DNA of 64,000 nucleotides from an uncultured Bacteroidota bacterium (GCA_902802755.1 CADCNH010000005.1:30634-94633), one strand, 5' to 3'. Positions 3,295-59,346 are shown, counted from the first letter of the stretch. Notes: a model not told the origin generated them from the sequence alone. A program made the numbers and translations.

Positions 3295-5601
3295 TTATCG
3301 TATGAGGTTGATAGAACCGGTTTTGATCAATTCCTGTTTCAGATTATTATAACGGATATAATTGATGTAATAAGTATAAACACCTGAAGGACATTCTTTT
3401 CCGTTTAAGGTACCATCCCATCCGATTTCGGGATTATCGGAATAGAATATTAATCCGCCATTTCTGTCATAAATCATGATATAATATTTAGCCACACAGG
3501 CCACAACAGGTAAGAACACGTCGTTAAGTCCATCTTTGTTGGGTGTGAAAGTGTTGGGCACAAAGAGCACATGGTTATCCACCACAGGGACAGGAGCCAT
3601 ATATACATCCTGACAATTGGCATCATCGGTCACAGTAAGGATGACATTGTAATTTTCGCTGTTTTCGGAGTTGTATACATGAGTGGGATTCTCCTCATTA
3701 CTGTTGGTTCCGTCGCCAAAACTCCAGGAATAATGAACGTTCAAGCCTTCTGATTGATTGGTAAATAAGACTTCCTGACCAACTTCGGCTTCCGCTGGAT
3801 CAAAGATGAATTGTGCGGTAGGTTGTTGTCCGGCATTAATATAATTGCTGAGCGTGACAGTTGCGTCACAAGGTTCCGCCTCGTATGCATGATAAGTTAT
3901 AGAATAGCGCCCGGGTTCTGTAAAAAGAAAACTTGTATTGTCGCCATAAATAGTGGTGTCGGGTGTGTTAGCGGAGGAAATTGTCCATTCGTGAGTGCTG
4001 GCGGGAGTAGCCGTGGATTTGAATGTAACCTCCTCGGGCACACATATTTCGTTGGGACTGATATGATAATGTCCTGCCAGTTCAGGAGTGCTGGTAATGA
4101 GAGCGGTATGGTAGCATGTGTCCGTCATACAACCCCAACGGTCACTGACAATAACTTGGAAGGTGGTGTTCTGAGTAATATTGCAATTGCTTTCTCTGGC
4201 ATTAGGAGTAGCTAATCCAGTGGAAGGTGTCCACTGGTATCTTAAAGCTCCGTCGGTGCCTCCTTCCATTTGTATGGCTACATGCTCGCATCGGTCACAA
4301 TAAAAAATGGTATCACTGGTGATTGTGAATTTTTTATTGTCAGTTAAAATATATTTGATAGTATCGTATTGTGCTCTTTCGTCCCTATGACCATCCAGAT
4401 ATCTGAAATTGGGACACAAGATGCTTTTGAATACAAGTTGGGCTCTTTTTGACTGATTTGGGGCAAACTGTGCACTTTCTTTGATATCCATTTTCAATCG
4501 AATAAGGGTGTCGCCTTCTGGAAAATAAATAGTGTCTCCATGATGTAAGGTGTCAATCAGATTATTTGAGCGAAGACGGATTACGTAAAAATCCTCTTCA
4601 TTGGCAGTACCTCCATCGCAATAAAAGACAATGTTCATAGATGATTCCAATGGCTCTCCATAATGAATGTCAATGTCAGCACCTTTGCAATTTTTAATCA
4701 ACGTGTCAAATCCCATTGTAATACTGTCGGTAACGCTTATTTCTTTGGGCAACTTGAAACTGCCTTTCTCCAAGAACACTCCTGAATCGTATGCTCCATC
4801 AGAAACATTGGCAATGGAAATTTTCATTTTATATTCTGAACAGGCACAAAGTGGGGCGTCGGCAACCAAATTGGTTGTGAAACCATCATATTCGATAGCC
4901 CCTCCTGAGTTGCTTCGGTAAAATTGGGAATAAGTTAATACACAAGGGGTGGCAGATCCAGCAGATGTTCCATTGTTTAAAGTGTTGATAGAAACAGGAA
5001 GACCTCCACTACCGGGTATAATCGCCATGTTTTTAGTGACATTGCCTGGACTTCCGAAGGGATCTGGTCCATAGAGAAAGAAACCGAATACGTCATTGAA
5101 GGAGGAACATACAAACTCAGGATATTCTTCAGAAGCAAAAATATAGTTGAAAGATACAACGTTGGTATATTCATTTCTTCCACTGTAAAAGTTGAACTCC
5201 AATACAGACGCATTGTTGAGAGGCTGTCCTGAAGCCACAAGTGGCTGTAAATCAGGATCCACAGTGGCGTGATTAACACCTGTGGTGCTACTTTCACTAG
5301 GAGAGGAATTAGGTCCTTCGGCAACACTGATATTACCAGTGGTAAGCAAAACTCCCGAGTTAAATGGGAATTGGGGATTAGTATTGGCAAAGGTGCCCAC
5401 TTGTGAGCCGTTGATGGTACTGGAACTCCAATTGAACTTGCAGTTATACAGTTTTACATCTTCTCCCGCAAAATACCTGTTGAGGAAGGTATCGGGCAGC
5501 AAACCATTAGCAGGTGTGGTCGTAATGGATTGGCTATACCCCGTTATGATGCACAGGCAGGCGATAAAACTGATAAGCAATCTTTTATATAAATTTCTCA
5601 T
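3295..5601 (-). CDS. secreted adhesin-like protein: choice-of-anchor-L-like N-domain, PKD-like repeats, T9SS type-B C-terminal sorting domain
   Basis: Signal peptide. The ASEEYPEFV...FNDVFGFFL segment is typical of choice-of-anchor L. The C-terminus FVPNTFTPNKDGLNDVFLP...GVYTYYI is the gliding-associated/type-B CTD signature. Confidence 0.75.
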   Translation of the reverse strand: MRNLYKRLLISFIACLCIITGYSQSITTTPANGLLPDTFLNRYFAGEDVKLYNCKFNWSSSTINGSQVGTFANTNPQFPFNSGVLLTTGNISVAEGPNSSPSESSTTGVNHATVDPDLQPLVASGQPLNNASVLEFNFYSGRNEYTNVVSFNYIFASEEYPEFVCSSFNDVFGFFLYGPDPFGSPGNVTKNMAIIPGSGGLPVSINTLNNGTSAGSATPCVLTYSQFYRSNSGGAIEYDGFTTNLVADAPLCACSEYKMKISIANVSDGAYDSGVFLEKGSFKLPKEISVTDSITMGFDTLIKNCKGADIDIHYGEPLESSMNIVFYCDGGTANEEDFYVIRLRSNNLIDTLHHGDTIYFPEGDTLIRLKMDIKESAQFAPNQSKRAQLVFKSILCPNFRYLDGHRDERAQYDTIKYILTDNKKFTITSDTIFYCDRCEHVAIQMEGGTDGALRYQWTPSTGLATPNARESNCNITQNTTFQVIVSDRWGCMTDTCYHTALITSTPELAGHYHISPNEICVPEEVTFKSTATPASTHEWTISSANTPDTTIYGDNTSFLFTEPGRYSITYHAYEAEPCDATVTLSNYINAGQQPTAQFIFDPAEAEVGQEVLFTNQSEGLNVHYSWSFGDGTNSNEENPTHVYNSENSENYNVILTVTDDANCQDVYMAPVPVVDNHVLFVPNTFTPNKDGLNDVFLPVVACVAKYYIMIYDRNGGLIFYSDNPEIGWDGTLNGKECPSGVYTYYINYIRYNNLKQELIKTGSINLIR

Positions 5602-25056: not shown

Positions 25057-25902
25057 ATGGCAACAATTGACGAATTAAAAGCTACCGCCGCCCAAGTGCG
25101 TCGTGACATTATCAGAATGGTTCATGGAGCAAAATCAGGTCATCCGGGAGGTTCCCTCGGCTGTGCTGATTTCTTGACCGCTCTGTATTTCGAACTGATG
25201 GAACTCGAACCGGATTCTTTCAGAACAGATGGTGTGGGACAGGATATGTTTTTCTTGTCTAATGGACATATCACCCCGGTTTTGTATAGTGTTATGGCCC
25301 GTCGTGGTTTCTTCCCGGTGAAAGAGTTGGCCACATTCCGTCAGCTGGGAACACGTTTGCAAGGACATCCTACTCCCGTGGAACAAATTCCCGGAGTGCG
25401 TATTGCATCAGGTTCACTCGGACAAGGACTCTCTGTGGCTATCGGTGCGGCGCTTGCCAAGAAAGCCAATGGCGACAAACATGTGGTGTATGCTTTGACG
25501 GGTGATGGCGAGTTGCAAGAAGGCCAAATCTGGGAAGCTGTTATGTTTGCTGGTGCCAAACACGTGGATAACTTGATTGCCACTGTTGACTTTAATGGCA
25601 AACAAATAGATGGTCCTACAGATGAAGTTTGTTCCCTGAAGGAAATTACGGCCAAATTTGAGGCATTTAACTGGCAAGTGGTGCAAATGGATGGCAATAA
25701 GATGGATGATGTCGTAGAGACGATGAAAAAGGCCAAAAACGCCCTGTTCCAGCAAAAGCCTGTCGTGGTCGTGATGAAAACGGAAATGGGTATGGGAGTG
25801 GATTTCATGATGGGAACCCACAAGTGGCATGGTACACCTCCTAATGATGAACAAGCCGCCGCTGCTCTATCACAATTGCCAGAAACCCTGGGAGATTTCT
25901 AA
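25057..25902 (+). CDS. transketolase, N-terminal (TPP/PP-domain) subunit of a split enzyme
   Basis: SGHPGGSLG, GDGELQEG and the overall 281-aa N-subunit architecture. No C-terminal subunit gene is adjacent. Confidence 0.85.
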   Translation: MATIDELKATAAQVRRDIIRMVHGAKSGHPGGSLGCADFLTALYFELMELEPDSFRTDGVGQDMFFLSNGHITPVLYSVMARRGFFPVKELATFRQLGTRLQGHPTPVEQIPGVRIASGSLGQGLSVAIGAALAKKANGDKHVVYALTGDGELQEGQIWEAVMFAGAKHVDNLIATVDFNGKQIDGPTDEVCSLKEITAKFEAFNWQVVQMDGNKMDDVVETMKKAKNALFQQKPVVVVMKTEMGMGVDFMMGTHKWHGTPPNDEQAAAALSQLPETLGDF

Positions 25903-25984: not shown

Positions 25985-27301
25985 ATGAAGATTGCCTACC
26001 GCTATATTATCAGAAACTTTATTGGCCCTCTAATTCTTACATTTTTTGTGGCCATTTTCATCCTATTGATGCAATTTCTCTGGAAATATGTGGATGACTT
26101 GGTCGGTAAGGGTTTGGAAATCCATATTCTTTTGAAATTCATGTTCTATGCTGCCGGTTCACTCATGAATATGGCACTTCCTCTTGCTATATTGCTTGCC
26201 TCGCTAATGACTTTTGGCAATATGGGCGAGAGGCTTGAAGTGGTGGCCATGAAGTCCGCAGGAATTCCAATCAGCAAAATGATGGCACCACTGGCTATTA
26301 TCTCAGTTCTGCTGACTGTTTTCGCTTTCTGGTATGCCGATAAGGTGATTCCTGTGGCTAACCTGAAGCTGCGTGCTCTTATATATAGCGTGCAAGAGCA
26401 AAAACCAGCCCTCAATATTGAAAGTGGGGTATTTTATAATGGTTTTGAGGATGTAACTATACGTGTGGGACATAAAAATGCCGATAATGTTACCATAGAA
26501 GATGTGCTGCTGTACGATCATTCCCGTCACCAAGGTAATGTGACTATGACATACGCCAAGTCTGGTACCATGAAAATGACCGATGATGGCAAATATCTGC
26601 TGTTTGTGTTGAATGATGGCTATTTTTGGGATGAGAGTGTGAATTCGGAAAGCCGTACAGCATCCAGACCATTGAGCAGAGCCACTTTTAAGGAACAATA
26701 CAAACGCTTTGACTTGTCATCCTTTGAACTGAAAGAAAGCGACGAGGAGTTTTTCTCTTCTTCACAACAGGCAATGCCTTTGGCTATGTTAGCAGAGAAA
26801 ATTGATACGATGAAAGTACAGGTAGATCGTTCCAAAGCGGATATTTCGACGGGCTTTCTTAAAAACATGTATTATTTTTCGAATTTTGTGCAGGCAAAAG
26901 AAGAACTGGTACAGATGGTACCCAAAGACTCGTTGCCAGTGTTGACGGTCCAGCAAAAAGTTGATGCGTACAATTATACAAAAAACAACGTTGAGGGAAT
27001 ATTGAATACCACCAAGTTTGCCGCACAGGATGTTTATTACAGAAATTTGTCTCTCCGCTCTTATCAAGTGGAATACCACAATAAATTCACTTTTTCATTG
27101 GCCTGTCTGCTCTTTTTCTTTATTGGCGCCCCATTGGGCTCTATCATTAGAAAAGGTGGAATCGGCATCCCCTTGGTCATCACGGTAGCCTTTTTTACCT
27201 TCTATTTTATGCTCACCGCTTTTGGGAAAAATATGGCTACTACGGGTCAAATGTCAGCTTTTGGTGGTGTGTGGTTGTCAACCTTGGTGGCGGCTGTGTG
27301 A
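25985..27301 (+). CDS. LptF/LptG (YjgP/YjgQ) family LPS-export permease, apparently truncated within the last TM helix
   Basis: Three N-terminal TM helices, a large periplasmic domain and TM4-5 are present. The sequence ends ...[13 protein letters not shown] inside the expected TM6, where the foreign patch begins. Confidence 0.7.
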
Positions 27302-28551
27302 GCGACCTAGGTGGCTATGTGGCATCGTGCTTCAAGCGTGGCTTGCGATGCATCAATATCCCAACCACTTTGTTATCAATGGTTGATGCTGCTATCGGCG
27401 GTGTTTCTGCAAGGGACAGCGGCCGGATCACCATCAACGGCGGCGATATCTCCGTAACAACGGTTTCTGCAGATAGCGCAGCCATCGGCGGCGGTAAAAA
27501 CGGCAAGGGCCTGGTCACCATCAACGACGGTACTGTTACCGTAAATAAAAACTGTAATGGTGACAGTATTTGGGATGCGCTGGCTTCTTTCTTGAAGGGA
27601 CAGTCATATCATGTGTATCGTTTCTATACGAAGGAAATGGTTCAGCGCTTGACGAAGGTGTTGCAAGAAAATGATTTCGATATCATTCAGCTGGAATCCA
27701 TTTTCGTGGCTCCCTATATTAACATCATACGCAAGTATTCCAAGGCGAAAATTGTTTTGCGTTTACACAATGTCGAACATATTATATGGGAGCGTATCGC
27801 CCGAAATCATGTCTCCTGGATCAAGAAGTTCGTTCTCAAACAGATGAACCGTCAGCTGAAACGTTACGAATGTTCGTTGATGAATAAGGTGGATGGTTTT
27901 ATGACCATCTCCGATGTGGATTATGATTTCTTCCATGCTTTGGCACCGAATACGCCAGGTACCGTGATTCCTTTTGCGGTGGATTTGGATAATTATGAAA
28001 TTGAAGATGAATATATTCCATCGGATCAGCCGGAATTGTTCCATTTGGGCAGCATGAACTGGATGCCGAATGTGGAAGGTCTGGAATGGTTCTTGGAAGA
28101 TGTTTTTCCCGCCATACTTGAAAAGTTTCCCTTGCTAACTTTTACGATGGCAGGCCGTAGTATTCCTGAATCGCTGCAACGTTTTGCCTCCGACCATGTG
28201 ATCATCGCAGGCGAAGTGGATAGTGCCAACGAATTTATGCTTTCTAAGGATATTATGATTGTTCCCCTTCTCTCTGGCAGTGGTATCAGAATCAAGATCA
28301 TCGAGGGTATGGCATTGGGTAAAACCATTATTACCACCAGTATTGGAGCAGAGGGACTGAATGTGGAGAATGGTAAGCATATTTTTATCGCGGACACGGC
28401 AGAAGAATTCATTGCGGTAATTGAAAAGTGTATCAAGACCCCGGATATTTGTACTATAATCGGAGAAAATGCCCGCCATTATGTGGCTTTGAATCATAAT
28501 ATTGAAGTTGTAACCCAGGAATTGGTAGATTTTTATCATGAAATATCTTAA
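27271..28551 (+). CDS. chimeric ORF: foreign 5' ~95 codons fused in frame to a family-4/1 (GT-B) glycosyltransferase lacking its own N-terminus
   Basis: GT homology begins near codon 98 ([13 protein letters not shown]..., [31 protein letters not shown]). The ORF has a GTG start and overlaps the lptF/G end. Confidence 0.6.
27280..27552 (+). other. GC-rich mosaic patch: 3-dehydroquinate-synthase (AroB) fragment + Gly-rich ITINGG/AAIGGG repeat fragment
   Basis: [42 protein letters not shown] aligns to the AroB nucleotide-binding core (E. coli [41 protein letters not shown]). It is followed by [42 protein letters not shown]. My hand count gives 53-58% G+C versus ~42% in the next 120 nt. Confidence 0.7.
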
Positions 28552-44382: not shown

Positions 44383-44745
44383 TCAGCAACTCAACATTTC
44401 GGCAGGGGTGATTTTTAGAATGCGACAAAGCATGCGGGCAATCTTTAAAGTGGGTTCTGCCCGTCCTGTTACATAATCGTTGATTCGGGAAGGACTGATA
44501 CCAATTTGTTGAGCAAGTTGCTTCTGGGTCATCCCTTCTTCCTCAAGTGACATTTCAATCAATTCAGCCACAGAGGGTTTGCCGATGGGAAAATGCTCCT
44601 TTTCATAGTCAATGACAACATCTGACATCATGGTCAACTCAATGGCATTGCGGTCATTGGCGGGTGTGTCATCATTCACCAGCGGAAGAAGTTCTTCGAT
44701 TCTTGCCAGTGCAAACTCATACTGTTCTTTTGTTATTTTGCTCAT
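44383..44745 (-). CDS. higA: HigA-type antitoxin (XRE-family HTH)
   Basis: MTQKQLAQQIGISPSRINDYVTGRAEP helix-turn-helix. Lies immediately downstream of higB. Confidence 0.8.
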   Translation of the reverse strand: MSKITKEQYEFALARIEELLPLVNDDTPANDRNAIELTMMSDVVIDYEKEHFPIGKPSVAELIEMSLEEEGMTQKQLAQQIGISPSRINDYVTGRAEPTLKIARMLCRILKITPAEMLSC

Positions 44746-44747
44746 AA

Positions 44748-45047
44748 TTATATCGTTGAAGCGTCAATTTTATTATACTCACTGTGTGTTCCGACAAAGC
44801 GGACAAATAGGTGACTGATTGTGAATTTCACCACTACTACAAGGCGATATTTGTTTCCTTTGATGTTGAATACATAGTGTTGATTTCCTACATAATCCGT
44901 AGAAGGGAAGTCCACTTTAATATCGGACAGATTTCTCCAATCGGCTTTTTCCGCAACATTATACCAGCGTTCCAAAGCCGTTTTTGAGTCCCCATGTCCT
45001 TCTGCTTCGTAGAACTCAACTAATCGCCTGTGTGATACCACTCTCAT
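44748..45047 (-). CDS. higB: HigB-type (RelE-fold) toxin
   Basis: ...NIKGNKYRLVVVVKF...VRFVGTHSEYDKIDASTI is the typical HigB_toxin C-terminus. A TAttTTTG box lies just upstream. Confidence 0.8.
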   Translation of the reverse strand: MRVVSHRRLVEFYEAEGHGDSKTALERWYNVAEKADWRNLSDIKVDFPSTDYVGNQHYVFNIKGNKYRLVVVVKFTISHLFVRFVGTHSEYNKIDASTI

Positions 45048-53443: not shown

Positions 53444-56284
53444 TCATCTGTCTCTGATAATCTGCAAAGAGCCATGATAATTCACGGTCTTGAATTTTCC
53501 TTTGTAGTAGAATGTGAAGAAATAAGCGCCGTCGGTCACTTTTGAGCCGTCAAAAACCTGGTCACCAATGATGATGCCAGTGCCACGTTCACCCGTCATA
53601 TCCATGAAAGTGTCATAGTTCTCCGCATGATACACTTGCTTGCCCCAACGGTCGTAAATAGTTAGTTCGTTGTTTCTGTATCTATCTGGATCTAAATTAT
53701 TTATAGATGTGTTGAGGTTGCCAATGGCGAACACATCATTCACCCCGTCACCATTAGGGGTGATGACATTCGGGAATATGAGATCTGCTTCCAAAGAGAC
53801 CGTGTGTGTGATACTGCTGTAACAACCATCTGAAGTGAACAAGGATAGGGTAACATCGTAATCGCCCCAGCTGGCATAGCTGTGTTCGAGGGCATAGCTG
53901 GAAGAATCGGTATTGCCGTCGCCAAAGTCCCAGCTAATATTCATGCCATTTTCAAATGAAGTGGTATCACCTTGTACTTTGAAATAAATTGTACCATCAG
54001 TTTCAGACCATAGGGAAATATCCGGAATGGCGTCAAATTCGGCATCAGGCTGGTAACTGACAGTAATGTAATTGTACTTGATGATGGAATCTTGGCAACC
54101 ATGGACGTTGCTTACAGTAAGCATAACACTGTAAATGCCACCATAATCAAGGGTGACAGACGGATTTTTCTGGTCGGAGGTGAAGACCGTTTGTCCTTGG
54201 TCATCATAACAGAACCAGTAATATTGCATGTCGTTTTCATCACCGATACTCAGATTGGTGAAGTTTACTGTCAACGGGGCACAACCATTGGTGTCGCTGA
54301 CCGTAAAGTTGGCAATGGGTTTAGGTGACACCATGATTTGCACGGTGTCGGAGCCACTGCATACCAAGCCATTTTCCGAGGTGTTGAATACCATTAGGGA
54401 ATATACTCCGGAGGAGGTTAAATAGATGTCGGAAGTGTGTTCACCGGTGTTCCAAAGAAAAGTGGAGTTGTTATCAGCCCAGTTTGAGTGAAGCAGATAG
54501 AGTTCACCATTACAGATATAGCGGTCTTCACCCAAATCGGGTTGTGGACTTTGGGTAATGTCAATTTGCATAAGCGTGTCGTATAGACAGCCAAACTCGT
54601 CGATGACATTGACGGTATAGGGAATGTGTCCGCTTTGATTGGGAACAATATTTATGCCTGATGCACCGGGACCCGTGATAAAGATTGTGTCAACATCAAC
54701 AGCGTAAGACCAGTTTTGGGGCAGTAAAGACGGGTCCAAAGCCATTTCCCATTCGTGCAGATAACCATTGTCGTTGGTCCATACATCTTCAATTTCGATG
54801 TACCAGCTGCCATTCAATGGACAGCCTACCATACCGGCAAAACTCTGAAGGGGATGGTACACTTGGGTCATATTGGCCACATCCGTGGAGTCTATCTTAT
54901 AAGAGGTGCTACCATCATCCCAATAGGGGTTGGCAGATGAGTGCACATTGCCAGGTTCGTAACAATAACTATTGGTGGTATTGGCATACTGATATCCCAG
55001 CGTTGTGTTGTTAGACCATACATAATTCCAGGCGATACCCATTGGATTTTGTGAGGCATTGCAACTTACCACTTCTTGCAATCGGTTTGCCACGCCCAGG
55101 TTGGTTCTGAAATAGTGTGTGACTCCACCCCAACCGTCGTATTGGTAGTCAGGGACAATCTTACACCGGCTACCGTTAGGGCAGACTAAGGAAATACGTA
55201 TGTCCTCTATGGCCGAGTGCTCTATTTTTAGACGCACATATAAAATGTCGTTGGCACTTGTAATGGTTGCATTGGGCGCAAAAGCCGTAAAATTGACGTA
55301 TGAACGGTAGTAATAACCGTATGGGGGACAACTGATGCCGTCAGGTAAAAACACGGTGTCAACGACCGCTAATGAGGTTATTTGCTCGCTTCCTACAGGA
55401 CTTAATTGCAATGCGGTCATATTACTATAGCCGACAGACAAGTTGAATTCGTCACCTGTACACAAAGGAGCTTGTGGCATGATGTTCCGGATTGGATTTT
55501 TAGAAGTACGAACACGGAAAGTAATAGGCACCAATGTTGGGCATTGATTAATATCTTTGGCACTGATGGCCACATCGTAGCCGCGGCCAGGGGTGAAATA
55601 ATAGTCCATGACATTGCTCCCTGGAAGTTCAAATTCTTCCAAATCAAAATCCCAATTGAAAAGGGTTGTGGCGTCATCCTGATGATAGCTGAAGTCGTTG
55701 TCGGGATAGGAGCAGTGGACCACAAGATGAACGGTATCGTAGGGACAAACATCAAGATAATAGTAATCATCATCATCCAGTTGTGGAATATGTGTGGATT
55801 GCAGTGAATCCAAGGTGATAATAACTCTTTGGCAGGGAGCTATACAACTGGTTTTGAGTACAAAACCTTCTCCGACGGACGTGGAGTCTGTCTTAAGTCT
55901 TACGGTGACGGCTCCTGTCGCATTCTGGATGGTGGCGGCAAAACGATAGGTGACGGTGGGATTGTAATTGCCGTTGTTGATTTTAAACAATAAAGTACCA
56001 TTTGTATCGGTACCATCATAGAAATACAAGGTGTCGCTTTCATCAATATCCAAGGTTTGCACCTCTACCATAACACATCCGTTGTTGGGGTCGTTGGATG
56101 TAATAGTTAGTGTTTGGTCGATATTTGATGAATAGTCGTTAGTGTTGCCACCATCGTCATAAATCAGCAGGTTGCAGTTGGAAATGCTACTGCTTGTTCC
56201 TAAATTTATTGTGCTTTGGGCGACAATTATGGGTAAGCAGGAGATGAATAGTACAAACAAAAAGAAAAACTTTCTCATAAGCAT
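53444..56284 (-). CDS. adhesin-like protein: CUB-like N-domain, proprotein-convertase P-domain-like module, PKD repeats, T9SS type-B CTD (paralog 1)
   Basis: Signal peptide. DTLYFYDG is CUB-like. IEDIRISLVCPNGS...GSWYIEIEDVWTNDNGYLHEWEMAL is P-domain-like. FPNVITPNGDGVNDVF is the type-B CTD. Confidence 0.7.
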   Translation of the reverse strand: MLMRKFFFLFVLFISCLPIIVAQSTINLGTSSSISNCNLLIYDDGGNTNDYSSNIDQTLTITSNDPNNGCVMVEVQTLDIDESDTLYFYDGTDTNGTLLFKINNGNYNPTVTYRFAATIQNATGAVTVRLKTDSTSVGEGFVLKTSCIAPCQRVIITLDSLQSTHIPQLDDDDYYYLDVCPYDTVHLVVHCSYPDNDFSYHQDDATTLFNWDFDLEEFELPGSNVMDYYFTPGRGYDVAISAKDINQCPTLVPITFRVRTSKNPIRNIMPQAPLCTGDEFNLSVGYSNMTALQLSPVGSEQITSLAVVDTVFLPDGISCPPYGYYYRSYVNFTAFAPNATITSANDILYVRLKIEHSAIEDIRISLVCPNGSRCKIVPDYQYDGWGGVTHYFRTNLGVANRLQEVVSCNASQNPMGIAWNYVWSNNTTLGYQYANTTNSYCYEPGNVHSSANPYWDDGSTSYKIDSTDVANMTQVYHPLQSFAGMVGCPLNGSWYIEIEDVWTNDNGYLHEWEMALDPSLLPQNWSYAVDVDTIFITGPGASGINIVPNQSGHIPYTVNVIDEFGCLYDTLMQIDITQSPQPDLGEDRYICNGELYLLHSNWADNNSTFLWNTGEHTSDIYLTSSGVYSLMVFNTSENGLVCSGSDTVQIMVSPKPIANFTVSDTNGCAPLTVNFTNLSIGDENDMQYYWFCYDDQGQTVFTSDQKNPSVTLDYGGIYSVMLTVSNVHGCQDSIIKYNYITVSYQPDAEFDAIPDISLWSETDGTIYFKVQGDTTSFENGMNISWDFGDGNTDSSSYALEHSYASWGDYDVTLSLFTSDGCYSSITHTVSLEADLIFPNVITPNGDGVNDVFAIGNLNTSINNLDPDRYRNNELTIYDRWGKQVYHAENYDTFMDMTGERGTGIIIGDQVFDGSKVTDGAYFFTFYYKGKFKTVNYHGSLQIIRDR

Positions 56285-56392
56285 AATTTGTTGTTTTTGA
56301 TATTCATTTATCTCCGTATGGCTTTCTGTTAAAATCGGTCCACAAAGTTACACAAAAAATTGAAACCAATGTATATTAGCAAGATTTTATTG

Positions 56393-56436
56393 TAAAAAAA
56401 AGAGTTAAGAAGAAAACCTCTTAACTCTTTTTTTTT
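56393..56436. terminator. bidirectional rho-independent terminator
   Basis: A8-AGAGTTAAGA-n8-TCTTAACTCT-T8, located 25 nt past the stop of paralog 2. Confidence 0.75.
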
Positions 56437-56460
56437 GATTGTTAGCTGAATTGTCAAGAG

Positions 56461-59346
56461 TTACCTGTCTCTAATAATGTGCAGGGTGCCGTGATAGTTG
56501 ACGGTTTTGAATTTCCCTTTGTAATAGAAGGTGAAGAAATAAGATCCGTCGGTAACTTTAGAACCATCAAAAACCTGGTCACCGATGATGATGCCATTTC
56601 CACGCTCACCAGTCATATCCATGAAAGTGTCGTAATTTTCTGCGTGATACACTTGTTTGCCCCAACGGTCATAGATGGTCAATTCATTGTTTCTGTATCT
56701 GTCAGGATCTAAGTCGTTCATGGAAGTGTTGAGGTTTCCGATGGCGAATACGTCGTTCACACCGTCACCGTTAGGCGTGATAACATTCGGGAAGACGAGA
56801 TCTGCCTCCAAGGCAACTGTATGGGTGATACTGCTGTTACAGCCTTCGGGGGTGAACATATTCAAAGTGACATCATAATCGCCCCAAGTGGAGTAAGTGT
56901 GTTCGATGGCATAACTTGAGGAGTCGGTAGCACCGTCACCAAAATCCCAGTTGAAACTCATACTGTTACCAAAGGCTGTGGTATCACCCTGAACTACGAA
57001 CATGATGGTTCCATCAGTTTCAGACCATAGTGCCACGTCTGGCAGAGCTACAAATTCAGCTGCGGGTTGATAATTGACAGTCAGGTAGTTCCATTTGATG
57101 ATAGAGTCTTGACAGCCATCGTCTGTTATTGCGTGCATGTAGATGGAATACACACCATCGGATTCAACGACGAAGTCAGGTGAGGGTTTGTCGGAAGAGA
57201 AGATGGTATTCCCATATTCGTCAAAGCAGATCCATTGATATGAGATATTGGCAGTGTCGGTGGAAATAGTGGTATTGGTAAGGTGTATATTGAGCGGAGC
57301 GCATCCAGACGTGTCGGAGGCGTAAAAGTCCGGGAAAGGTTTGGGCAAGGTGATGATATTCACAGTATCTGATCCAGTACATTCCAGTCCGTCTTCATTT
57401 GCCACAGTCAGCTGTACGGAATATTCACCGCTTGAAGAGAGGTAAATGTTAGGTGTGCGTTCACCGGTATTCCAGATAAGTGAGGTATAGGGTTGGTCAT
57501 AGCCGCAGTTCAACTGATAGAGTTGGCCATGGCAAATGTTTCTGTCGGGACCCAAGTCGGGACGAGGTTTCTCCACTACTTCCAAGGGGAGTATAGTGTC
57601 GTACTCGCAACCCAAGTCGTCAATAACATGAGCGACGTATGGGATGGTACCGCTTTCCATCGGGATAACGGAAGTGCCATCAGCACCGGGACCAGTTAAA
57701 TAAACAGTATCAACAAAAACGGTGTAAGACCAGTCTTGTGGAACCAAGGATGGGTCTAATGCCATTTCCCATTCAGTGATATAGCCATTGTCACCATACC
57801 ATGCGTCAATAACGGTGATACTCCATGTACCGTTCATAGGACAGCCGATAAGGGATGCGAAAGATTCGTCAGGATGGTATATATTGGTCATAGTGACCAT
57901 ATTGGATGAGTCAACACTGCCACTAAGATGATGACCTTGGTTAACGGATTCATATACATATCCTTGTCCATTAGCATATTGGTAACCATTGTTGGTGTTG
58001 TTTGACCAGCAGTAATTCCAAGCGGTTCCCATCGGATTTGTGGCTGGGTTACAATCGTCACCGTTATCGGTATGTAATGCTGCTCCAAAGTCAGTACTGG
58101 AGCCAACGCCAGAGGTTACATTCCATCCCCATCCGTTTGATGGAACAAGGCCTGAGCATTGTGTTGTCGTACTATTACCGTACTTCTTCATAATTTTAGC
58201 GCTTCTACGCACACCTGTTACAGGGTCAGGAGGGCAGGTAAGTGCTACATAGATATCTCCAATGTAGGTGTGCTCCAATTTGGCGCGGACATACCAAATG
58301 TCGTTTGCGCTTTGAATGGTAGCTGAAGGGGCAAAAGCCGTAAAGGTTACAGGTGATTCGAATGCACAAATACCGTTGCACATCACACCATCAGGAATAA
58401 ATACGGTGTCCAGTACAGCCAATGTGGTGAGCTGTTCACTGTATATTGAGTCGTATTGCAGCACAGATAGATTAGAATAACTGGCTGTGATTGTAACCTC
58501 GTCACCAGTACACATTGGAGGCAGTGGTTGTATTTTTCTGATTGGGTTGTCAGAGGTTCTGACTCTGAAGATAGTGGGATTCATGTTCTCACAGCCTGCA
58601 CTATCCACATTAGAGAGGGCTATGTCATAGCCTCTGCCGTGTTCAAAATAGTAATCAATTGTGGTCATGCCCACTCCCTCAAAGGACTCAACTCCCAAAT
58701 CCCATGTAAAAGTGGTGTTGGCATCATCCTGGTGGTAATTGTAGTCATTGTCAAGATATAATCCGTGTAATACCATGTGAAGGGTATCATGTCCACAAAG
58801 GTCCACATAATAAAAACCGTCATCGTCAAGATGCGGGACATGGGACGACAACACAGAGTCAATCTCAATACCCACACGCTGGCATGCTTGCACACATGTG
58901 GAGTTGATGACAAAGCCACTACCGTTCTCAATGCTGTCGCTGACGAATTTCAGCGTTAAGGCACCTGTCGGGTTCTGTATTGTGGCTGTGAATAGTACCT
59001 CGTTTCCAATGCCTACAAGTGTTGCACTGTTGACGGCCGCAAGGAGCAGAGAGTCAACATCAGAATCACCATCATAGATAAACAAAGTATCAGTGAAGGA
59101 AATGTCAGTATTGTTGACTTGTAATGCCAATTGTACATTCGACATGGTGGGGTTGTTCGAATGGATGGTTAGAATATCGTTGCGGTATGGACCATAGTCC
59201 CCGTTTTGTCCACCATGGTCGTAGATGACGAAATTACATCCTGTGACACTTGTTGTGCTGCCTCCCATGGTGACAACCGTCTGGGCGGAAATTGTGCTTA
59301 TGACTCCGCAAAGCAGCAGGGATAGAAGGATAAATATTCTTTTCAT
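56461..59346 (-). CDS. adhesin-like protein, same architecture (paralog 2)
   Basis: Collinear with 53444..56284. The last ~115 aa differ at only about 7 positions. Confidence 0.7.
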   Translation of the reverse strand: MKRIFILLSLLLCGVISTISAQTVVTMGGSTTSVTGCNFVIYDHGGQNGDYGPYRNDILTIHSNNPTMSNVQLALQVNNTDISFTDTLFIYDGDSDVDSLLLAAVNSATLVGIGNEVLFTATIQNPTGALTLKFVSDSIENGSGFVINSTCVQACQRVGIEIDSVLSSHVPHLDDDGFYYVDLCGHDTLHMVLHGLYLDNDYNYHQDDANTTFTWDLGVESFEGVGMTTIDYYFEHGRGYDIALSNVDSAGCENMNPTIFRVRTSDNPIRKIQPLPPMCTGDEVTITASYSNLSVLQYDSIYSEQLTTLAVLDTVFIPDGVMCNGICAFESPVTFTAFAPSATIQSANDIWYVRAKLEHTYIGDIYVALTCPPDPVTGVRRSAKIMKKYGNSTTTQCSGLVPSNGWGWNVTSGVGSSTDFGAALHTDNGDDCNPATNPMGTAWNYCWSNNTNNGYQYANGQGYVYESVNQGHHLSGSVDSSNMVTMTNIYHPDESFASLIGCPMNGTWSITVIDAWYGDNGYITEWEMALDPSLVPQDWSYTVFVDTVYLTGPGADGTSVIPMESGTIPYVAHVIDDLGCEYDTILPLEVVEKPRPDLGPDRNICHGQLYQLNCGYDQPYTSLIWNTGERTPNIYLSSSGEYSVQLTVANEDGLECTGSDTVNIITLPKPFPDFYASDTSGCAPLNIHLTNTTISTDTANISYQWICFDEYGNTIFSSDKPSPDFVVESDGVYSIYMHAITDDGCQDSIIKWNYLTVNYQPAAEFVALPDVALWSETDGTIMFVVQGDTTAFGNSMSFNWDFGDGATDSSSYAIEHTYSTWGDYDVTLNMFTPEGCNSSITHTVALEADLVFPNVITPNGDGVNDVFAIGNLNTSMNDLDPDRYRNNELTIYDRWGKQVYHAENYDTFMDMTGERGNGIIIGDQVFDGSKVTDGSYFFTFYYKGKFKTVNYHGTLHIIRDR

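Follow-up and report, generated by a model that had tools for sequence, protein, structure and literature searches.

Inter-genome chimeras in metagenome contigs and metagenome-assembled genomes (MAGs) usually consist of long blocks that are joined via exact shared k-mers, and the chimeras produced by jumping PCR usually contain a single junction, located between homologous templates. Filler DNA (or templated insertions) and the products of FoSTeS/MMBIR, which are described mainly in eukaryotes, normally derive from templates that lie nearby in the same genome. In SPDIR, a segment is replaced by heterologous DNA of a different length, with crossovers at mismatched or gapped extended microhomologies and possibly with a foreign donor; the resulting patches measure 3 to ~100 bp, originate from a single donor strand and arise in wild type at a frequency below 1e-12 (bioRxiv 10.1101/2023.11.22.568220).

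With these systems we compared a 279-nt foreign stretch found in a window of 64,000 nt, the whole stretch of DNA analyzed here, which comes from an uncultured Bacteroidota bacterium (GCA_902802755.1 CADCNH010000005.1:30634-94633). The host is a rumen-type Bacteroidales. The stretch is a mosaic of gene fragments, the donors of two of its pieces were found, it occurs in a single assembly, and other contigs of the same strain carry an intact native allele at this place. In our view, the patch is very probably a chimera of technical origin that is confined to one deposited contig from a metagenome assembly and lies outside the genome of the organism. The locus is organized as follows.

25985..27301, + strand: truncated LptF/LptG-family permease (Pfam PF03739, profile 1-344 of 353)
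27271..27289, + strand: host stretch holding the switch from host to aroB (15/19 against the aroB donor; peptide VVVNLG in the aroB frame)
27289..27401, + strand: piece A, internal aroB (3-dehydroquinate synthase) fragment (113/113 nt against L169)
27384..27401, + strand: A/B switch region, 18 nt common to both donors (L169 18/18, L087 17/18), encoding (D)AAIGG
27402..27494, + strand: piece B, fragment of a Gly-rich repeat gene (donor match begins at 27384; 109/111 nt)
27495..27568, + strand: piece C, further unit of the same repeat family (60-76% aa identity to other units)
27569..28551, + strand: native GT4 glycosyltransferase from W75 to the stop (identical to L001, L002 and L003)

The foreign stretch covers 27290-27568, its edges being set by comparison with the same-strain contigs. 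An earlier reading made from the sequence only (the sequence-only reading) had placed it at 27271-27560, and while the foreign stretch proved real, its edges had to be refined. The same reading had seen in it a mosaic of unrelated gene fragments, with an aroB core followed by a Gly-rich repeat, a description borne out by the donors found for two pieces. An ORF on the + strand (27271..28551; 426 aa, GTG start) overlaps the end of the permease ORF; its residues 2-47 correspond to positions 34-79 of the 115 in the Pfam DHQ_synthase profile, which the 100-aa patch peptide matches with an E value of 6e-18, and its C-terminal 326 residues constitute a GT4 glycosyltransferase. The G+C content is 0.534 in 27271-27560 and 0.530 in 27290-27568 against 0.426 in the whole window, and 1.2% of 279-nt windows reach the value of the patch. 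The compositional shift reported earlier is confirmed, but the donors of pieces A and B themselves have G+C contents of 0.54 and 0.59. The excess is due to Gly/Ala codons, and a high value is ordinary for Gly/Ala-rich coding DNA and no independent sign of foreign origin. Neither a second copy of the patch nor an aroB gene was found elsewhere in the 64-kb window, which makes a local duplication, a repeat-templated change or a diversity-generating element unlikely.

Independent metagenome contigs of the same organism were retrieved via exact-protein look-ups of the neighboring dxs and transketolase. Contig L002 (ENA ERZ1029116) spans the locus and contains an intact gene for a 478-aa LptF/G protein, the stop of which overlaps the start of an intact gene for a 400-aa GT4 enzyme, followed by dxs. 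The native sequence is also present in the ERZ27280644 contigs and in the Logan ERR3201421 assembly. The window coincides with these same-strain contigs as far as 27289 and from 27569 onward, and between these points the 279 nt of the patch (27290-27568) stand in place of 351 native nt (L002 4507-4857; G+C content of 0.40), a net change of -72 nt. The replaced segment specifies the C-terminal 43 residues of LptF/G and the N-terminal 74 of the GT4 enzyme. We rejected the possibility that the patch is a corrupted form of these 351 nt, its interior similarity to them being no higher than that of shuffled controls. In L002, the two flanks are contiguous without the insert, and outside the patch all 42,024 of 42,024 positions are identical to the ERZ27280644 contigs (0 mismatches), indicating that they represent the same strain and that no further change has accumulated. 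The sequence-only reading had named, as a finding that would refute it, the presence of this continuous sequence in relatives; the comparison was run, and they lack it, the same-strain contigs having both genes intact. Among the causes that it had put forward, namely template switching, filler DNA and an assembly or amplification chimera, it is the chimera that is supported.

Within the native gene junction, the G+C content is 10% over a stretch of 40 nt. In ERZ27280644 as well as in Logan ERR3201421, the contigs run 107 nt and ~240 nt into the replaced region, where they are native, and then end, the ends falling inside the 40-nt stretch. In both assemblies, the first of which was made with MEGAHIT, the contigs terminate at identical bases, ...AAATTACA and ATAAAAAAAACAAAT..., and the 4 bases (ATCA) between these shared ends, at the overlap of the lptF/G stop and the GT start, are absent (L002 4590-4640; ends of L004, starts of L001 and L003). 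The shared ends could reflect a coverage hole or a small polymorphism. On the upstream side lies a 281-aa transketolase N-terminal-half gene (25057-25902, + strand), after which lptF/G comes in place of the usual C-terminal-half gene, with dxs two genes downstream.

Both native proteins, LptF/G and GT4, are covered fully by Pfam, and in the window neither is complete. The window permease has 438 aa against 478 in the native protein and consists of 435 native residues followed by AAV and a stop. It thus ends in ...WLSTLVAAV and is cut inside the last hydrophobic helix, just as the sequence-only reading had described. Its match to PF03739 covers positions 1-344 of 353, short of full coverage through the last TM helix, whereas the L002 copy covers 1-353. 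For the glycosyltransferase, an earlier estimate of roughly 60-90 missing N-terminal residues agrees with the 74 native residues (1-74) found to be absent; the match to the N-domain PF13439 starts at profile position 60, against 8-169 in the native protein, and the N-terminal Rossmann-like domain of GT4 enzymes is accordingly incomplete in the window ORF. The GT4 C-terminal domain is retained (PF13692, E value of 1.8e-20, residues 254-388). Judging from these domain losses, the patch would inactivate two genes, those of the LptF/G permease and of the GT4 enzyme.

A single open reading frame runs through all of the pieces, as expected of a functional new fusion protein in which an aroB motif, a repeat and a glycosyltransferase were brought together by domain shuffling. 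This interpretation is nevertheless extremely unlikely. Such a protein would include just 44 residues of the DHQ synthase N-domain (PF01761, profile positions 34-79 of 115), with neither the AroB C-terminal domain PF24621 nor the length of ~340-360 aa of AroB proteins, and a GT4 N-domain deprived of its first 74 residues. No relative searched has this architecture, and the protein and species-representative genome searches revealed none with the fusion. Moreover, the continuity of the frame is automatic at the A/B junction, where the DNA encodes a common peptide, and probably likewise at the B/C junction.

Piece A (27289-27401) is identical at 113 of 113 nt to an aroB gene on L169, a contig of Logan SRR16020828. 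The encoded protein, P0055 (354 aa), has TIGR01357 aroB as its best match (298.7 bits, slightly below the 305-bit cut-off), contains both DHQ synthase domains (PF01761 and PF24621) over its 354 aa and is identical to the patch across all patch-encoded aroB residues. Another protein, P0172, carried by a 55.9-kb contig of an NCBI-only MAG, shares 353 of 354 residues with P0055 and is identical to it in the part corresponding to piece A. This donor was reached through a metagenome pattern scan that returned an aroB sharing the rare residues and having 82% nt identity, the protein of which was then used as the query that led to P0055. The first word-indexed protein searches had yielded only DHQ synthase fragments of at most 75% identity and nothing for the repeat part, and among 185,579 species-representative genomes scanned, the best matches, in rumen Bacteroidales MAGs, had 77% aa and 79% nt identity. 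These early negatives on donors reflect limits of sensitivity, as the word-indexed search missed P0035, the repeat protein described below, despite 37 common residues. The donor of piece A is most likely another Bacteroidales-type organism. The host's own aroB is disfavored as the donor, since the donor cluster never shows the NCBI, ENA and Logan source pattern of the host genes; with a G+C content of 0.476, the aroB lies at the upper end of the range of host genes and its composition alone is compatible with a host origin.

For the repeat part, a full HMMER search found P0035 (415 aa), a Gly-rich "AAIGGG / VTINGG" surface-repeat protein that matches the patch nearly residue for residue. At the nucleotide level, window positions 27384-27494 are identical at 109 of 111 nt (98.2%) to L085 3348-3458 (equivalent to L087 10348-10458). 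The contig carrying this donor of piece B has GGAGG-type ribosome-binding sites and luxC/luxE-like genes, suggesting that it is Firmicute-like; the genes of the host, a Bacteroidales, have A/T-rich upstream regions without GGAGG-type sites. Piece C shares 60-76% aa identity with repeat units of P0034, P0036 and L087 and 81% nt identity with L087 11327-11380, and no near-identical donor for it was found in the metagenome pattern scan, the fetched proteins and loci, or the viral contigs. It may come from a third donor or may have been contiguous with piece B in an unsampled homologue. The inserted DNA thus matches genes of other organisms for both A (113/113) and B (109/111), matches to real genes that speak against a chance origin of the mosaic, and the donors differ from the host as well as from each other, being at least two and from different phyla.

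These matches also bear on whether the sequence was generated in silico or planted as a decoy. The first searches, which found no close relative of either fragment, were compatible with such an origin, but real environmental genes were found with 100% (piece A) and 98.2% (piece B) identity, and public NCBI/ENA data contain both the truncated permease and the fusion ORF, on a 125,859-nt contig. A generated sequence is therefore effectively refuted and, in our view, very unlikely.

Several additional features of the repeat family were observed. The "AAIGGG-x5-VTINGGxVT" repeats belong to a family of large surface proteins (L087 10001-15880, from ENA ERZ1061891 scaffold_408; P0032-P0050), for which the full HMMER search returned only 19 cluster representatives. 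P0035 has no Pfam match above the cut-off and no NCBIfam match, and its gene adjoins, on a Firmicute-like contig, a gene for a 1518-aa Flg_new_2/fn3 protein and a RelE/HTH pair.

With the native sequence and two donors available, the junctions could be placed. At the host/A junction, the window follows the host up to 27289 and the aroB donor from 27289, so that the exact identity amounts to 1 nt; yet of the 19 nt that precede the switch, 15 agree with the donor L169, which has a chance probability (P for at least 15/19) of 1.2e-6. The four mismatches to L169 are at 27274, 27279, 27285 and 27288, and three of them are transitions. The A/B switch takes place within 18 nt (27384-27401) that match the two donors at 18/18 and 17/18 and encode DAAIGG in both, the common word AAIGG being where the sequence-only reading had already seen the change from aroB to repeat. 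At the B/C junction, identity to the donor of piece B stops at ...ATCGGCGGCGG (27494), and at the C/host junction the exact native sequence is back at 27569, with only a gapped resemblance to native sequence leftward of this point. All three internal switch points (window 27289-27495) are located at GGCGG strings, which correspond to Gly codons; this placement may stem from read ends, from trimming after GGC motifs or from annealing at G-rich microhomology. The earlier proposal that junctions lie at short shared words thus applies to A/B but not to the left junction, where 1 nt of exact identity is embedded in an imperfect 15/19 homology.

The sequence-only reading had also found it unexpected that all junctions should be in frame, which no longer appears to be so. 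The A/B junction is in frame because its DNA encodes the same peptide (DAAIGG) in both donors, B/C is probably in frame for the same reason (common peptide AAIGGG), and host/A is out of frame with the permease. C/host is then the only junction that is in frame by chance, an outcome of about 1 in 3.

In a collection of ~15 billion proteins, the 438-aa truncated permease and the fusion ORF (390 aa when counted from the ATG at 27379) occur on one contig only, of 125,859 nt and with NCBI and ENA as sources, so that the patch is unique to one assembly. This contig is evidently the deposited MAG contig that contains the window. In the 39-member cluster formed by the permease at 90%, the other 14 members listed have lengths of 463-479 aa, and three contigs, the longest of 125,208 nt, carry the native GT. 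A 34-mer across the left junction was absent from the JGI metagenome and viral collections.

The junctions could be taken as the trace of a real and recent mutation in a sub-population of the host, in which a 351-bp deletion was filled with foreign single-stranded DNA from two or three rumen organisms that annealed at extended imperfect microhomologies, by an SPDIR-like process or by serial template switching, leaving filler DNA. The host/A (15/19, P of 1.2e-6) and A/B (17-18/18) homologies are far above chance, as strand annealing would give, and crossovers at such extended microhomologies, together with the replacement of a segment by foreign DNA of another length, are what SPDIR shows; that process has been described with intra- or extragenomic single-stranded DNA at mismatched or gapped microhomologies (bioRxiv 10.1101/2023.11.22.568220). 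Furthermore, the incorporation of the patch into an assembled 125-kb contig implies that it was supported by enough k-mers. Unlike SPDIR products, however, which measure 3 to ~100 bp and come from one donor strand, the patch has 279 bp, two or three donors (at least two, from different phyla) and four junctions, and is seen in one assembly; the frequency of SPDIR in wild type is below 1e-12. The patch likewise resembles filler DNA and the products of FoSTeS/MMBIR in combining a deletion with copied-in stretches and junction microhomology, and differs from them in that its templates are genes of other organisms. Also at odds with a mutation are the lack of any other difference from the native strain over 42 kb, the native allele in every other assembly with the patch on one contig only, and the destruction of an LPS-export permease and a glycosyltransferase directly upstream of dxs. 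We therefore regard a real mutation as unlikely. If true, it would represent short-patch illegitimate recombination that occurred naturally and with several donors, and would be evidence from the field that extracellular DNA of unrelated species is used by bacteria to repair breaks, as well as a route to mosaic coding sequence.

The preferred explanation remains a technical chimera, in which the pieces appear to have been joined outside a cell, either in silico or within a chimeric library molecule, and the junctions would accordingly be expected to lack read support. In its overall pattern, the locus is like an inter-genome chimeric misassembly: the flanks are of one genome and the insert of others, the joins are at short similarity, the site is hard to assemble, and the sequence is native elsewhere. 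It is unlike the usual cases in that the patch is three read-length pieces chained together, with at least one mismatch-tolerant join (1 nt exact within 15/19). A plain de Bruijn join via shared k-mers of at least 20 was rejected, given the four mismatches beside the host/A switch and the 1 nt of exact identity there, so that one has to postulate either a mismatch-tolerant step or a chimeric molecule. Annealing of strands with imperfect homology is also conceivable in a cell, and of the four mismatches, three would then pair as G·T wobbles.

A chimeric library molecule would have formed by PCR jumping or template switching on fragmented DNA and would then have been used by the assembler across a coverage gap. 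The junctions, placed at imperfect homology with the 3'-terminal base paired, fit this wet-lab origin, as do the sizes of the pieces (~100-130 nt), the total of 279 nt plus flanks, which would fit one library insert, and the extreme AT richness of the native junction. Like jumping PCR, the patch shows switches at similar sequence, with the frame kept where both templates encode the same motif. In contrast to what such chimeras usually look like, it has four junctions between unrelated genes, which would be exceptional. Four template switches per molecule are very improbable in ordinary low-cycle shotgun libraries, and k-mers seen once are usually discarded by assemblers, making a wet-lab chimera quite unlikely.

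A technical chimera made in silico may instead have arisen by the joining of contig tips via short mismatch-tolerant overlaps, which seems the most likely route, the chimeric library molecule being less likely. According to this scheme, the assembly would have broken at the gene junction of 10% G+C, which is hard to assemble and where two other same-strain assemblies break. The break would have been bridged by short gene pieces from community members, each of at most ~130 nt (read length), consisting of one aroB fragment and one or two Firmicute-type surface-repeat fragments; with overlaps included, the observed pieces measure 131, 111 and at least 74 nt, sizes that fit read length. The host/A and A/B joins would have been placed at short imperfect similarity, in a step of tip joining, gap closing or bin reassembly that tolerates mismatches in short overlaps, and the native contig ends, of ~107 and 240 nt, would have been lost in the joining. 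The gap closer of SPAdes, for example, admits overlaps from 10 nt upward containing at most 2 mismatches, and the host/A overlap may have qualified with exactly 10 nt. If the patch is such an artifact, public protein databases now include two spurious entries, a truncated LPS-export permease and a fusion protein, and the locus shows how foreign pieces of read length can be linked one after another at GGCGG (Gly-codon) strings over an AT-rich junction between genes.

Other features were noted elsewhere in the window. A HigB-toxin/HTH-antitoxin pair lies at 44383-45047 (- strand), with Pfam matches to HigB_toxin and HTH_3/HTH_31 as seen on the identical contig L171 (2087-2751). Three large proteins with PKD and CHU_C domains, the latter being a type IX secretion C-terminal domain, are encoded at 53444-59346 (- strand) and 3295-5601 (- strand). 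Two of the three are in tandem, with lengths of 944-961 aa, and the presence of these PKD/CHU_C proteins fits with a Bacteroidota host.
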